64,000 bases of DNA from the NCBI GenBank assembly GCA_007376385.1, contig VMGC01000004.1, positions 32,001 to 96,000 on the forward strand, given 5' to 3'. Source of the stretch: Parcubacteria group bacterium Gr01-1014_8 (lineage in GTDB: Bacteria; Patescibacteriota; Minisyncoccia; Phycocordibacterales; UBA2100). Positions 39,785-44,081 of the stretch are shown here, in pieces (position 1 is the stretch's first letter; each line of letters opens with the position of its first letter). Below the pieces are notes generated by a model. The model made no database searches. It was not told where the DNA came from and saw only the letters and a program-made list of their open reading frames with translations. Position numbers and translations under genes: made by a program.

Positions 39785-40744
39785 TTGTATATGCCAAGTT
39801 CACCGAAAGTCACGCCGAAAGATTTCTTCCTCTGGGCAGGAGCGATGGTTGCCCTCTATGGGGGAGTCATTTCCTTCGTCACCCTATTATTTCAATACAT
39901 TGATTACGCGTATCCTGATCCTCTTTCCAACTATTCATACAGCGACCCGTTCTCAGGCAGCATGCGGTTTGCTATGGCGACTCTCATTGTGCTCGTGCCC
40001 GTAGCTCTCGTCATCATGCGCTTCATACGCAAAGACATCGCGCGCATTCCTGAAAAAAATGAACTGTGGGTACGACGATGGGCGCTCGTACTCACCGTCT
40101 TTATCGCTGGGGCTGCAGTAGTGGGGGACTCGATCGCGCTCATTAATTCGTTCCTGGGCGGTGATCTTACGACTCCATTTCTTCTCAAGGTTGTTGCGCT
40201 TCTTCTCGTTGCCGGTGCCGCATTCTTGCATTTTCTCGCTGACTTGCGTGGATACTGGACGGCAAATCGGGGACGGGCACAGATGGTCGGTTACGGAGCA
40301 GGAACCGTTGTACTTCTTACCGTCGTCGCAGGATTCTTCATCATGGGAACGCCGGGCGATGTGCGATTGATGCGTTATGACTCGCAAAAAGTGACTGACC
40401 TCCAGAACATACAATGGCAAGTGGTGAACTATTGGCAACAGAAACAAATGCTCCCGACAGCATTATCGCAACTTGAGGATCCTATCTCTGGTTGGAAGGC
40501 ACCGCTCGATCCAGAGGACAAGAGAGAGTATACGTATGAGAAAACAGGCGATATGTCTTTCAAACTCTGCGCGGAGTTCAACTTCGAAGTCACCGAAGAA
40601 ATGAATGGGGTGAAGGTTGCATATCCGGAATACGGCGTTAGTACGGACAATTGGCTGCATGGGCAGGGTGAGCACTGCTTTGACCGAACTATCGATCCGG
40701 ACCTGTATCCAGTCTATCCCAAAGGCGTTCCCATCCGCGAGTAA
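39785..40744 (+). CDS. Hypothetical membrane protein (about 5 TM, DUF-like)
   Basis: Hydrophobic N-terminal two-thirds and a soluble C-terminal domain. Confidence 0.5.
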   Translation: MYMPSSPKVTPKDFFLWAGAMVALYGGVISFVTLLFQYIDYAYPDPLSNYSYSDPFSGSMRFAMATLIVLVPVALVIMRFIRKDIARIPEKNELWVRRWALVLTVFIAGAAVVGDSIALINSFLGGDLTTPFLLKVVALLLVAGAAFLHFLADLRGYWTANRGRAQMVGYGAGTVVLLTVVAGFFIMGTPGDVRLMRYDSQKVTDLQNIQWQVVNYWQQKQMLPTALSQLEDPISGWKAPLDPEDKREYTYEKTGDMSFKLCAEFNFEVTEEMNGVKVAYPEYGVSTDNWLHGQGEHCFDRTIDPDLYPVYPKGVPIRE

Positions 40745-40747
40745 TTT

Positions 40748-41002
40748 CTACGAGTCTGACTCGTAATGATCGAGTCGCCAGCGTTGGTAGGCGAGTAGCG
40801 CCCACTCTGAGCCTAGGATGAGCGACGAGATGGTTGCCGACCACAGATCGAGTGTCGCGTAGGTCGCAGCAAACACAAATAGTCCGCCAGCAGAAGCAAG
40901 TGAGGTGAGTAGTGCTGGCTTTTGTGCTCGATCAAATATCGTCGGTAAGATCGTCAAAATAAATCCCCACTGAATGATCGAGATAGCCCAATCTTGCCAC
41001 AT
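40748..41002 (-). CDS. Small hypothetical membrane protein (84 aa)
   Basis: Two or three hydrophobic helices, tightly packed between neighbours. Confidence 0.35.
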   Translation of the reverse strand: MWQDWAISIIQWGFILTILPTIFDRAQKPALLTSLASAGGLFVFAATYATLDLWSATISSLILGSEWALLAYQRWRLDHYESDS

Positions 41003-41043
41003 GATTGTTAGTATATCGTATATAGTATATCGTATCTCGTATT

Positions 41044-41127
41044 ATGAAGAGATACGATCATCGCAAAATTGAGAAAAAATGGGCCTCCTTCGCTAAGGCT
41101 ACGGACGGGCAAACAGCAGAAGTATGA
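41044..41127 (+). other. Upstream ORF (27 aa) mimicking the LeuRS N-terminus, stop overlapping the leuS ATG (ATGA)
   Basis: Encodes MKRYDHRKIEKKW..., versus LeuRS MKSYDHKRIERKW... Its ATG sits in the loop of a 10-bp perfect hairpin (41029-41058). Confidence 0.3.
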
Positions 41128-44081
41128 AAAGTTACGATCATAAACGTATAGAACGAAAGTGGCAGGCACGCTGGAAGAAATCGAAGCTGTACAAGACTGC
41201 CGATACGGTAAAAGGTAAGAAAAATTATTATTTGCTAACTGAATTTCCGTATCCGTCTGGCAATTTGCACGTCGGACACTGGTACGCTTTTTCTGTACCG
41301 GACATTTTAGCAAGAGCGCTCCGCATGCAAGGCAAGAATGTGATGTATCCGTTCGGCTTTGATGCATTCGGATTGCCTGCGGAAAACGCAGCCATAAAAA
41401 ATAAGTTGAATCCTCGAAAATGGACCCTCGGCAACATCAAGTACATGAAAAAACAGATAACCTCGATGGGTGCATCGTTTGATTGGTCTCGAGAACTCGC
41501 TACGTGCGATCCTGAATACTACAAGTGGACGCAGTGGCAGTTTTTGCAATTTTTTAAGGCAGGACTCGCATATCGAAAAGAGACAGCAGTCAATTGGTGC
41601 CCTTCGTGCAAGACAGTGCTTGCGAACGAGCAGGTAGTGGATGGAAAATGCGAACGATGCGGAACGGAAGTGATTCAGAAGCAAATGCTTCAATGGAACT
41701 TAAAAATCACCGACTATGCGGACCGTCTTATTGACGATTTGAGCACGCTGGATTGGCCTGAACAGATAAAGGAATCGCAGAAAAATTGGATAGGACGTTC
41801 TGAAGGCGCCGAGATAGATTTCAGGCTCACAGGAAATGTAGGCGATGACTCACGGTATCTGATCCTCCACGGCAGAGAAGGGAAGCCCACGAGCGTCTTT
41901 ATTCCATGGCTCAAAGAAGAACTGGAAAAAGCTGGACATGAAGTGGAAGTGCCACAGCTTCCCAACACGAATGAACCGAATGCATATGAACAGGCAGAAT
42001 ACATCCTCAAGAACTGCACCGTAGATGAAAAAACAGTTGTGATAGGCCACTCGATAGGAGGAGTTACAGCGCTGCGTCTCTTGGAGAAGGGCGCAAAGGT
42101 TAGGCGCGTTATATTGGTCGCGACACCGTACTCAGGAAGATTTTTGGATGGTAAGAAACGGCCGAGCGTCACAGATTCCGTGAAGAAGGGGTTCGATTTC
42201 GAGACGATACGGAACAATACAAAGAGCATCATTGTTATGCCGGATGTAAAAGATGACAGAGTTCCATTTTCCGACGCCGAGAGCTATGCGCAGAAACTGG
42301 CCGGGATGCTGGTCCATGGCAGGGGAGAGGAGAAGCATTTTATGGGTAAGATAGAGCCGGATGTATTGATGTGCCTTTGCCCCACTATCCGCGTTTTTAC
42401 GACGCGAGCCGACACGCTTTTCGGGGCGACCTACATGGTCTTGTCCCCGGAACATCCATGGGTACGGTTAGCGATAGATGATGATCACAAAGTTTTAGAA
42501 AATAAGGATGAGGTAAAGGAATACGTCACAGCGGCGAATAAAAAAACTGAGCTGGAACGCCTCACGGAACAAAAAGAAAAGACCGGGGTGAGGCTGAAAG
42601 GCGTTGAGGGAGTAAACCCCGCTACGGGCGAGAAGATACCGATATTCGTAGCAGACTACGTGCTTGCGCACTACGGGACAGGGGCCATCATGGCGGTCCC
42701 GGCGCACGATGAGCGCGACTTTGCATTTGCCAAGAAATTTGAGCTGCCGATACGAGATGTGATCTCTACTGGAAAGATGGAATCCGGCGTGTTCGCAGGA
42801 GAAGGAGTGTTGGTGAATTCCGGCGCGTTCAATGGGCTAAAAAGTATCGAGGCTAAGAGCACGCTCACCGATAAATTTGGCCGCAGTAAAATCACGTACA
42901 AACTCCGCGATTGGATAGTTTCGCGCCAGCGTTACTGGGGAGTTCCAATACCCATCGTCCACTGCGAAAGGTGTGGAGACGTCGCTATTCCTGATCCACA
43001 GCTTCCCGTTACATTGCCGGAAATCAAAGATTATTTGCCAACCGGAGACGGAAAATCGCCTCTCGCAAAAGCCAAAAAGTGGGTCAAAGTGAAATGTCCG
43101 CAGTGCAAAGGGACGGCAGAAAGAGAAACAGATACTCTCGATACGTTCGTCGATTCATCCTGGTACTTTTTGCGGTACGCGGACACAATAAACAAAAAAA
43201 AGTTTGCCGATATGAAAAAGATGGATGCATGGATGCCGGTAGATCTCTATTCCGGAGGAGCAGAACACACAACGATGCACCTCCTCTATTCTCGCTTCTG
43301 GCAGAAGGCGCTCTACGATCTAAAGCTCGTTAAGGACAGCGAGCCGTACACGCGAAGGATGAATCGTTCCATCATTCTTGGTCCAGACGGGCAAAAGATG
43401 TCGAAATCCCGAGGCAACGTGATAGACCCGGATGCTGTTGTCGCGAAACTCGGCGCAGACACCGTGCGTATGTACCTTGCCTTCATAGGTCCGTATAATG
43501 AGGTTTCGAACTATCCGTGGAATCCGGATGGTGTGGTAGGTATTCGCCGTTTTCTCGAGCGTGTTTGGCGCCTCCGCGACCGACTTACGATATCGGTCAA
43601 GAAAAGTGACGGACATACGATATCGAACATCGAACGGATGCTGCATGTAACGATTAAAAAGGTGGGGGACGATATCACTGCCCTGAAATTCAATACTGCC
43701 ATCGCGCAGATGATGTCGTTTATGAACGAAGCAGAGAGTAAAGGGATCACAAAGGCGCAATACGAGACACTGCTTCGGCTTCTTGCCCCGTTCGCTCCTC
43801 ATATTGCAGACGAACTTTGGAGCATGATGGGACACAAGAAGTCGGTTCATATTGAAAAATGGCCCGCATTCGATCCGCATAAACTCGCGTCGTCGTCGTT
43901 TACAATTGCGGTACAAGTGAATGGCAAGACACGAACTCAAATCACCATACCTGCTGCAGTGAAGGAAGACGCCGTGAAGGAACAGGCTGAAACAGCTGCA
44001 GGAAAATGGTTGGAGGGAAAGGCTATAAAAAAGATCATCTACGTGCCCGGCCGCATCGTCAACATCGTCGCGGGCGAATAG
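41124..44081 (+). CDS. leuS: Leucyl-tRNA synthetase with inserted YdeN/RBBP9-like alpha/beta-hydrolase domain
   Basis: HIGH motif (HVGHWY) and KMSKS; CP1 editing motifs TTRADTLFGATY and GTGAIMAVPAHDERD. A roughly 185-aa insertion at aa 236-420 has YLILHG...GHSIGG... Confidence 0.9.
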   Translation: MKSYDHKRIERKWQARWKKSKLYKTADTVKGKKNYYLLTEFPYPSGNLHVGHWYAFSVPDILARALRMQGKNVMYPFGFDAFGLPAENAAIKNKLNPRKWTLGNIKYMKKQITSMGASFDWSRELATCDPEYYKWTQWQFLQFFKAGLAYRKETAVNWCPSCKTVLANEQVVDGKCERCGTEVIQKQMLQWNLKITDYADRLIDDLSTLDWPEQIKESQKNWIGRSEGAEIDFRLTGNVGDDSRYLILHGREGKPTSVFIPWLKEELEKAGHEVEVPQLPNTNEPNAYEQAEYILKNCTVDEKTVVIGHSIGGVTALRLLEKGAKVRRVILVATPYSGRFLDGKKRPSVTDSVKKGFDFETIRNNTKSIIVMPDVKDDRVPFSDAESYAQKLAGMLVHGRGEEKHFMGKIEPDVLMCLCPTIRVFTTRADTLFGATYMVLSPEHPWVRLAIDDDHKVLENKDEVKEYVTAANKKTELERLTEQKEKTGVRLKGVEGVNPATGEKIPIFVADYVLAHYGTGAIMAVPAHDERDFAFAKKFELPIRDVISTGKMESGVFAGEGVLVNSGAFNGLKSIEAKSTLTDKFGRSKITYKLRDWIVSRQRYWGVPIPIVHCERCGDVAIPDPQLPVTLPEIKDYLPTGDGKSPLAKAKKWVKVKCPQCKGTAERETDTLDTFVDSSWYFLRYADTINKKKFADMKKMDAWMPVDLYSGGAEHTTMHLLYSRFWQKALYDLKLVKDSEPYTRRMNRSIILGPDGQKMSKSRGNVIDPDAVVAKLGADTVRMYLAFIGPYNEVSNYPWNPDGVVGIRRFLERVWRLRDRLTISVKKSDGHTISNIERMLHVTIKKVGDDITALKFNTAIAQMMSFMNEAESKGITKAQYETLLRLLAPFAPHIADELWSMMGHKKSVHIEKWPAFDPHKLASSSFTIAVQVNGKTRTQITIPAAVKEDAVKEQAETAAGKWLEGKAIKKIIYVPGRIVNIVAGE

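Follow-up and report, generated by a model that had tools for sequence, protein, structure and literature searches.

The leuS gene for leucyl-tRNA synthetase (LeuRS) analysed here is preceded by a diverged, out-of-frame copy of its own first 13 codons, and this decoy opens a short upstream open reading frame (uORF) whose stop codon overlaps the genuine leuS start. The layout is that of uORF-mediated translational coupling, in a form previously uncatalogued for leuS or in Rfam, and it recurs at leuS in other Patescibacteria. We give a probability of about 0.5 to the reading that a translated, promoter-proximal uORF delivers ribosomes to leuS by termination-reinitiation. Of greater interest than this one atypical locus is the class as a whole.

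The leuS locus and its neighbours

The window, by which we mean the whole stretch of 64,000 nt that was analysed, belongs to a Kaiserbacteria-like genome of the Parcubacteria within the Patescibacteria. Among species-representative genomes, the nearest LeuRS proteins are those of Candidatus Kaiserbacteria (L001) and Parcubacteria GW2011_GWA2_51_10 (L004). The genes of the locus are:

39785-40744, plus strand: DUF5671 gene, upstream of leuS
40748-41002, minus strand: divergent neighbour gene from the ORF list, encoding a small predicted membrane protein of 84 aa (MWQDW...)
41124-44081, plus strand: leuS, 985 aa, a class I tRNA-synthetase with LeuRS editing and anticodon-binding domains

The start of the divergent small ORF lies 41 nt from the decoy ATG, a TATACT -10-like box is present on the minus strand 7 nt before its own ATG, and its 84-aa product (40748-41002, minus strand) matches no Pfam family. 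The gene order DUF5671, small divergent ORF, leuS is common to the window and the relative L235, where a homologue of the 84-aa protein, likewise beginning MWQDW..., has the same position and orientation beside leuS.

The LeuRS protein carries an inserted serine-hydrolase/alpha-beta-hydrolase domain at aa 245-398 (41856-42317; PF06821, E=5.8e-8), located between the catalytic core and the editing domain and common to relatives, some of which also harbour a NUDIX domain (PF00293) in LeuRS, e.g., L004 with 1125 aa. In L233, L234, L235 and many of P0001-P0120, leuS is called as at least two ORFs of about 230-330 aa. These split calls break near the site of the window's hydrolase insert and may represent split genes, insertions or assembly errors. 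L202 contains a low-coverage frameshift.

An out-of-frame copy of the leuS start

The region between the divergent gene and leuS contains the following features:

41011-41042: tandem repeat of the heptanucleotide GTATATC, 4.6 copies with 88% matches (Tandem Repeats Finder)
41029-41038/41049-41058, plus strand: perfect 10-bp hairpin ATCGTATCTC/GAGATACGAT with a 10-nt loop, GUAUUAUGAA, containing the ATG at 41044
41044-41082, plus strand: decoy copy of leuS codons 1-13 (MKRYDHRKIEKKW), out of frame with leuS, from sequence comparison
41044-41127, plus strand: uORF of 27 codons from the ORF list (MKRYDHRKIEKKWASFAKATDGQTAEV), made up of the decoy and 14 unrelated codons and ending in TGA
41083-41123, plus strand: spacer of 41 nt (GCCUCCUU...), 59% G+C, flanked by the two copies with 33% G+C
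41124-41127, plus strand: ATGA, overlap of uORF stop and leuS start, candidate termination-reinitiation site

The decoy peptide MKRYDHRKIEKKW and the LeuRS N-terminus MKSYDHKRIERKW are identical at 9 of 13 residues, and three of the four differences are swaps between lysine and arginine. At the DNA level, the copies at 41044-41082 and 41124-41162 (offset 80) agree in just 26 of 39 positions (67%). The initial annotation had pointed to this mimicry, to the 27-codon ORF that starts in a hairpin loop and ends in ATGA, and to the perfect 10-bp hairpin itself. All of these are present, and its proposal of a partial 5' duplication of leuS is supported by the comparison of decoy and real copy. A simple tandem duplication of 80 nt was considered and rejected: positions 41083-41122 and 41163-41202 match at only 14 of 40 sites. 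The uORF (41044-41127) yields no Pfam match, and MKRYDHRKIEKKWASFAKATDGQTAEV is encoded without a single Leu codon.

The 3' arm of the hairpin is formed by decoy codons 3-5 (AGA TAC GAT), while its 5' arm is supplied by the heptamer repeat (41011-41042). The predicted stability is -13.2 kcal/mol (z=-2.95), a value reached by 2 of 200 shuffled sequences, and a hairpin caging the upstream start is thus statistically unusual for its composition. The 11-bp direct repeat described initially, GTATATCGTAT, does occur at 41011-41021 and 41025-41035, but it is part of the longer heptanucleotide array; the full repeat has 14 nt, TAGTATATCGTAT followed by A or C, and spans 41009-41036. The array holds the only TAnnnT -10-like boxes of the region upstream of leuS, and no such repeat was found in the relatives L001, L004 and L235.

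The spacer opens with an anti-SD-like CCUCCUU and has no second occurrence in the 64 kb. It folds at -8.8 kcal/mol (z=+0.77) into a weak hairpin, leaving no significant structure after the UGG of codon 13. On the minus strand, positions 41083-41099 resemble a terminator, in which the spacer contributes the stem GCCTT..AAGG and the complement of the decoy Lys-Lys codons the T-run.

Chance, frameshift and assembly artefact

All window ORFs of at least 100 aa, on both strands, were scanned for an upstream copy of their own N-terminus at a threshold of 30. The sole case was leuS, with a score of 56, and the same scan of 1.43 Mb of other loci returned another leuS as the sole out-of-frame match. 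Since the scans matched leuS alone, the resemblance of the decoy to LeuRS exceeds chance. The divergence between the copies is constrained at the protein level: when 13 substitutions were placed at random, the observed similarity of decoy and real peptides was reached in none of 20,000 trials. The corresponding P value is <5e-5 for the window and for the loci L043 and L094 described below, and <=0.011 in the remaining decoy loci. Changes between decoy and real copy are synonymous or conservative in 8/8 loci.

Beyond Trp13 of the upstream copy, no frame contains LeuRS-like sequence, and the second N-terminus is complete. Therefore, a single indel cannot restore one ORF, which disposes of 41044 as the true LeuRS start hidden by a sequencing frameshift. 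As a general mechanism, a frameshift or an in-frame fusion of decoy and LeuRS was rejected as well, given a real-frame stop in the spacer of the window, L094 and L130. An artefact in the wider sense, i.e., two strains joined into a chimera or a true start at 41044 hidden by a frameshift, deserves mention for a genome from an uncultured lineage, yet the 67% DNA identity between the copies is far under strain-level variation, the 41-nt spacer is LeuRS-like in no frame, and the layout is repeated in independent assemblies from different studies. We regard such an origin as very improbable.

Start signals at the two starts

The window genome shows a leaderless signature. A -10 box (at least 5/6 matches) ends 5-12 nt before the ATG in 12 of 49 window ORFs, compared to 3 of 49 in a control zone, and only 4 of the 49 large ORFs show an SD core at the proper distance. 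In many leuS genes of the Patescibacteria, the ATG follows a few nt after TATAAT, TACAAT or TAGAAT. Within the decoy class, TATAAT or TAGAAT is found 7-12 nt before the decoy ATG of L084, L103 and L128, and no -10 box precedes the real start in these three loci; in L043, metG ends in a stop codon that overlaps the decoy ATG.

The true leuS start of the window (41124) has neither a -10 box nor an SD before it. The best -10-like box ahead of the decoy is TATAGT (5/6), which ends 17 nt upstream of 41044, the usual distance being 5-12 nt. The real start region of the window (-20 to +45) folds at -4.3 kcal/mol (z about +1) and is unusually unstructured; real start regions are unstructured in all decoy loci.

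Recurrence in other Patescibacteria

A motif scan of 80 leuS loci uncovered two further decoy cases. L043, from a Patescibacteria bin, has MKYNPQKIEKKW followed by SRF..., and then MKYNPNKIERKWQ 130 nt downstream, while L064, from the Moraniibacteriota, has MEKYNPKEIEKKW followed by SRE..., and then MENKYNPGKIEPKWQ; the sequence of L085 is identical to L064. A metagenome scan for K or E before IEKKW and then KCC covered 120 stretches and added five more distinct loci (L084, L094, L103, L128 and L130/L135), the pattern biasing this sample toward intact decoys.

In all eight loci, the decoy runs exactly from the start codon to Trp13, where similarity ends, and the two Trp codons lie 79-130 nt apart, a distance not divisible by 3 in any of the loci. 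The uORFs comprise 22-47 codons, with 0-2 Leu codons in the loci other than the window, and stop between -43 and +9 of the true start, which they overlap in 5/8 loci. In the window, stop and start overlap as ATGA. The spacer has no stop in the real frame either in 5/8 loci (in L043 this frame is open for 42 codons upstream), and the openness of the uORF across the spacer is not clearly above chance. A DNA-level scan of about 75 leuS loci found decoys either intact or absent, with no intermediates at z>3.1 except L235.

The seven other loci, which are independent, have in common the junction TGG/TCCCG and fall into two spacer types. Type A spacers contain one conserved hairpin (UCCCGC-loop-GCGGGA UUUCG ... 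CUCAAC). Type B spacers form two long tandem hairpins from four mutually complementary segments, with compensatory changes in 14 of 37 predicted pairs, as judged from three sequences only. Stem pairing starts from the second base of UGG, and a compact stable stem-loop starting within UGG is present in 7/8 loci, the window being the exception. Comparison of sense and antisense folding revealed a slight sense preference of the spacers in 5/8 loci. At type A loci, the hairpin and the A-run before it likewise read as a terminator on the minus strand.

At the gathering score, Rfam contains no relevant family for the seven sister loci. Their spacers are single-copy, with one occurrence per locus; a dispersed repeat or REP/MITE was rejected on these grounds and on the uniqueness of the window spacer in 64 kb. 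Viral contigs scanned for the type B block gave chance matches only, and neither a nearby integrase nor a full-size insertion was found in the 3-kb flanks.

The window shares with this class an intact out-of-frame copy of ATG to Trp13 at an offset within 79-130 nt. Its spacer starts with GCCTCC... and folds weakly, where the other loci have a TCCCG-initial spacer with a hairpin starting inside UGG, and it shows no significant similarity to spacers of type A or B. The strong hairpin of the window covers the decoy start, where no other decoy locus has one. The window is therefore an atypical member with the same architecture, and may be an independent or a strongly diverged instance; its link by descent to the other loci is unproven, because its spacer is neither significantly structured nor similar to theirs.

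LeuRS genes with decoys do not form a clade. The L128 decoy is similar to the N-termini found in L046 and L146, the relatives of its LeuRS, whereas the L128 spacer and the first about 60 nt of the real ORF are L043-like and the rest of the gene is again L046/L146-like. This pattern suggests that recombination brought the spacer together with a new 5' end into L128. The two metagenome alleles L130 and L135 form a sharp mosaic, in which stretches of >1 kb with 100% identity stand beside about 1 kb of divergent sequence after the catalytic core, where up to 25 columns differ in an aligned window of 30. This mosaic indicates recombination within leuS among related populations. The identical spacer of the two loci was dropped as evidence for a mobile tract, the whole gene being mosaic.

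In-frame tandem duplications of the N-terminus, about 57 nt before the usual N-terminus, occur in L048, L060, L062, L068, L071 and L074, and are recognized by RYNGK..W..W followed by RYNF..IE.KWQ..W. The six loci bear the labels gut Alphaproteobacteria, Rhodospirillaceae or Azospirillum and, for L074, Bacteroidaceae. Judging by these cases, the N-terminal segment of leuS is prone to duplication and tolerates an in-frame copy.

Close relatives and the ancestral copy

None of six close relatives (L001, L004 and L232-L235) has an intact decoy. In L235, the 44 nt between the divergent starts contain ATGAAGAGAGTATACACCGCAAAAAACTTGCGCTAGGATGTGCGG (L235:556-600), which aligns to the window decoy (p=0.002) and to the N-terminus of L235 itself (p=0.001). 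This sequence has the decoy-specific CGC codon, is frame-broken and includes a TAGGAT -10 box 7 nt before the real ATG; it is read here as a probable decayed decoy turned promoter. As L235 has only a frame-broken remnant, the layout is dispensable and can decay. A comparison of leuS leaders thus gives a divided answer: most close relatives are without the feature, but distant relatives have it, and only because of these and the one decayed remnant is it not absent from all relatives.

The decoy peptide agrees at 13/13 residues with the genuine N-terminus of P0025, which has the highest identity among the LeuRS proteins found (82% across the aligned 60% of the query). In codons 4-13, the decoy matches the real 5' ends of the six relatives at 22-25 of 30 nt and the real copy matches them at 19-22. 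The decoy is probably the ancestral, promoter-proximal start, and occupies the place of the relatives' start, itself probably leaderless.

The real start of L001 has a related structure: a near-palindrome of 13-15 bp (L001:2966-3012; -21.8 kcal/mol, z=-3.4) encloses the leuS ATG. An 11-codon uORF, MVRWYDHAVRP, ends 13 nt into leuS and arises from a 13-nt tandem duplication of Tyr-Asp-His codons.

Proposed mechanism and alternative explanations

The overlap of uORF stop and true start makes a translationally coupled leader ORF the most economical interpretation of the locus. The initial annotation had proposed a coupled leader or an attenuator; its first half is supported, while for the second neither a terminator nor an attenuator-like switch was found. 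In the mechanism considered here, the genome would produce mostly leaderless or very short-leader mRNAs, and ribosomes would load, downstream of a putative transcription start, on the promoter-proximal decoy AUG (41044), which immediately follows the sole promoter-like sequence. They would translate the 27-codon uORF and stop at the UGA that overlaps the true AUG (AUGA), and LeuRS would be made by termination-reinitiation at this AUG in an open, A-rich stretch. Reinitiation is invoked because the true start lacks both a promoter and an SD of its own and is situated in this open stretch. The 10-bp hairpin, whose loop contains the decoy AUG, would set the number of entering ribosomes, and in other lineages hairpins right after codon 13 would take this gating role. 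We infer that ribosomes translate the uORF at 41044-41127 and reach leuS by reinitiation, and that the layout serves regulation and is not just tolerated.

The recurrence of the layout, its exact boundaries, the covariation of the hairpins and the intactness of the decoys speak for a function; its patchy distribution, the remnant in L235 and the ascertainment bias of the metagenome pattern speak for a by-product of 5'-end replacement that is tolerated. In the latter case, the decoy would be the native 5' end, left over when that end was duplicated or when the gene recombined with a diverged leuS allele or cassette; it might still be translated, would play no regulatory role and would decay or be deleted. 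The distribution, with most relatives lacking a decoy, and the decayed remnant in L235 are consistent with such a relic, as are the L128 mosaic, which suggests import of spacer and new 5' end by recombination, and the window decoy, which is identical to P0025 at 13/13 residues, is nearer to the relatives than is the real copy and would fit a young stub of the native gene. A relic, however, does not account for a copy that ends at Trp13 in 8/8 loci and is never longer, nor for hairpin spacers that are conserved, with covariation, in LeuRS lineages unrelated to one another. Among about 75 loci there is no partly decayed decoy except L235, and if the window and L235 share an ancestral decoy, the unselected window copy should have decayed too. 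We consider a tolerated relic possible, although we lean against it. More doubtful is an explanation at the DNA level, in which repeat, palindrome and untranslated decoy constitute a promoter/operator for the small ORF and leuS, the TAYRAT of the Tyr-Asp/Asn codons serves as a -10 box, and slippage of the repeat possibly confers phase variation. The 4.6 copies of the 7-nt repeat between two divergent starts would suit this explanation, as would the several TAnnnT boxes in the repeat, the TATACT 7 nt before the minus-strand ATG, the decoy remnant of L235 that is now a TAGGAT -10 box, and the TATAAT or TACAAT contained in decoys at several loci. Yet every leuS has the same TAYRAY codons, third codon positions of the decoys vary freely while amino acids are kept, which is a coding and not a binding-site pattern, and the terminal stems of the hairpins covary, pointing to a folded single strand. 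A DNA-level element thus appears unlikely.

Translational bypassing would involve take-off at the decoy UGG and landing on the UGG at 41160-41162, yielding a LeuRS with either N-terminus. A UGG after AAR is matched in all loci, no gap has a length divisible by 3, a compact, stable stem-loop begins inside the take-off codon in 7/8 loci as in T4 gene 60, and in 7/8 loci the two copies of one genome change together at the variable third position; both copies evolve conservatively, and bypassing would explain why both stay LeuRS-like. Against these points, the window itself has no stable stem-loop after UGG, the second copy always retains its own start codon, additional UGG triplets lie inside the gap in 4/8 loci, no stop codon follows the take-off codon, and gaps of 79-130 nt exceed known cases at a nascent chain of just 13 residues. 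Bypassing is thus highly improbable. Even less credence is given to a leucine- or charging-responsive attenuator or T-box, as had been suggested for the leader initially. Given leuS T-boxes in Firmicutes and Leu-codon leaders in Streptomyces (PMC1262725), this was a reasonable prior, but the window uORF has no Leu codons and the others 0-2, and Rfam searched at E<=10 across 40600-41400 produced no T-box (RF00230) or other relevant family. The same interval has no intrinsic terminator on the plus strand, ARAGORN detected no tRNA-like fold in the leaders, and no alternative-pairing switch emerged. An ermC-like switch was rejected after constrained folds, in which blocking the decoy plus 13 nt freed no real-start bases at any locus.

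Beyond translational coupling at the individual locus, we tentatively consider, as a rather unlikely extension, that a leuS leader cassette spreads laterally through the Patescibacteria. It would consist of the hairpin(s), a replacement start and about 13-20 N-terminal codons, and would be installed by recombination with the conserved N-terminal coding sequence of leuS as homology arm. The resident start would thereby be demoted to a translated decoy uORF, on whose translation LeuRS synthesis would then depend, and the window would be a diverged member.

Implications

Leaderless genes have no 5' UTR where regulation could evolve, and a uORF derived from the first codons of the gene itself would offer a simple way to bring them under post-transcriptional control. 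If real, the cassette would represent an undescribed way to add translational control to a gene without a 5' UTR in leaderless, SD-poor hosts, and the hairpin versions, if mobile between lineages, would constitute a new kind of small element targeting an essential gene. For annotation, the layout implies that gene callers may choose the wrong leuS start or extend LeuRS through the spacer (cf. L043). Patescibacteria are uncultured, and to our knowledge almost nothing has been learned about their gene regulation; a cis-element that recurs at a core gene and can be tested offers a useful starting point for its study.

Comparison with known systems

The literature yielded no description of a uORF that copies the N-terminus of its own gene at leuS, and a protein database queried with the uORF peptide returned no candidates, uORFs not being called as genes there. 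Among established leuS leaders, those of Firmicutes are controlled by T-box riboswitches, and the Streptomyces leuS has a leader peptide with Leu codons, a classical attenuator (PMC1262725). The locus described here resembles both in having a cis-acting leader with a small ORF before leuS, but the window has no T-box fold, no Leu codons and no terminator/antiterminator.

Attenuation at ermC/ermB relies on a leader peptide and alternative hairpins that mask the RBS. Similar to these genes, the decoy loci have a leader ORF and then strong hairpins before the regulated start, with four complementary segments in type B. Unlike in ermC, the real leuS start is not sequestered, blocking segment 1 frees nothing before the start, the leader has no known stalling signal, and the window is without a strong spacer hairpin. 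With T4 gene 60 and the mitochondrial "byp" elements, the class shares matched codons that flank a non-coding gap, a take-off stem-loop in most sister loci and an inserted element that is apparently laterally mobile. In contrast to those systems, the gap contains a full second start and N-terminal codons, so that no bypass is needed, the gaps are longer, and the window has no stem-loop.

Integrative elements with attL/attR sites carry a diverged copy of the end of their target gene and thereby restore it. The decoy loci likewise have two diverged, protein-conserving copies flanking foreign sequence, with the native-like copy displaced; yet the "element" comprises merely 40-95 nt, and there is no integrase nearby.

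Closest in working to the window layout are the 5'-terminal AUG uORFs of E. coli, which bind 70S ribosomes and affect the downstream cistron (Beck, Fleming & Janssen 2016, PMC4965119), taken together with stop-start (AUGA) coupling by termination-reinitiation. In both cases, a short ORF near the (here putative) mRNA 5' end has a stop that overlaps the next start, and the downstream start is without a strong RBS of its own. Unlike in those systems, the decoy repeats the N-terminal codons of the gene that it precedes and is maintained at the protein level; across a phylum, it is found repeatedly at a single essential gene, mostly with a conserved hairpin within the uORF.
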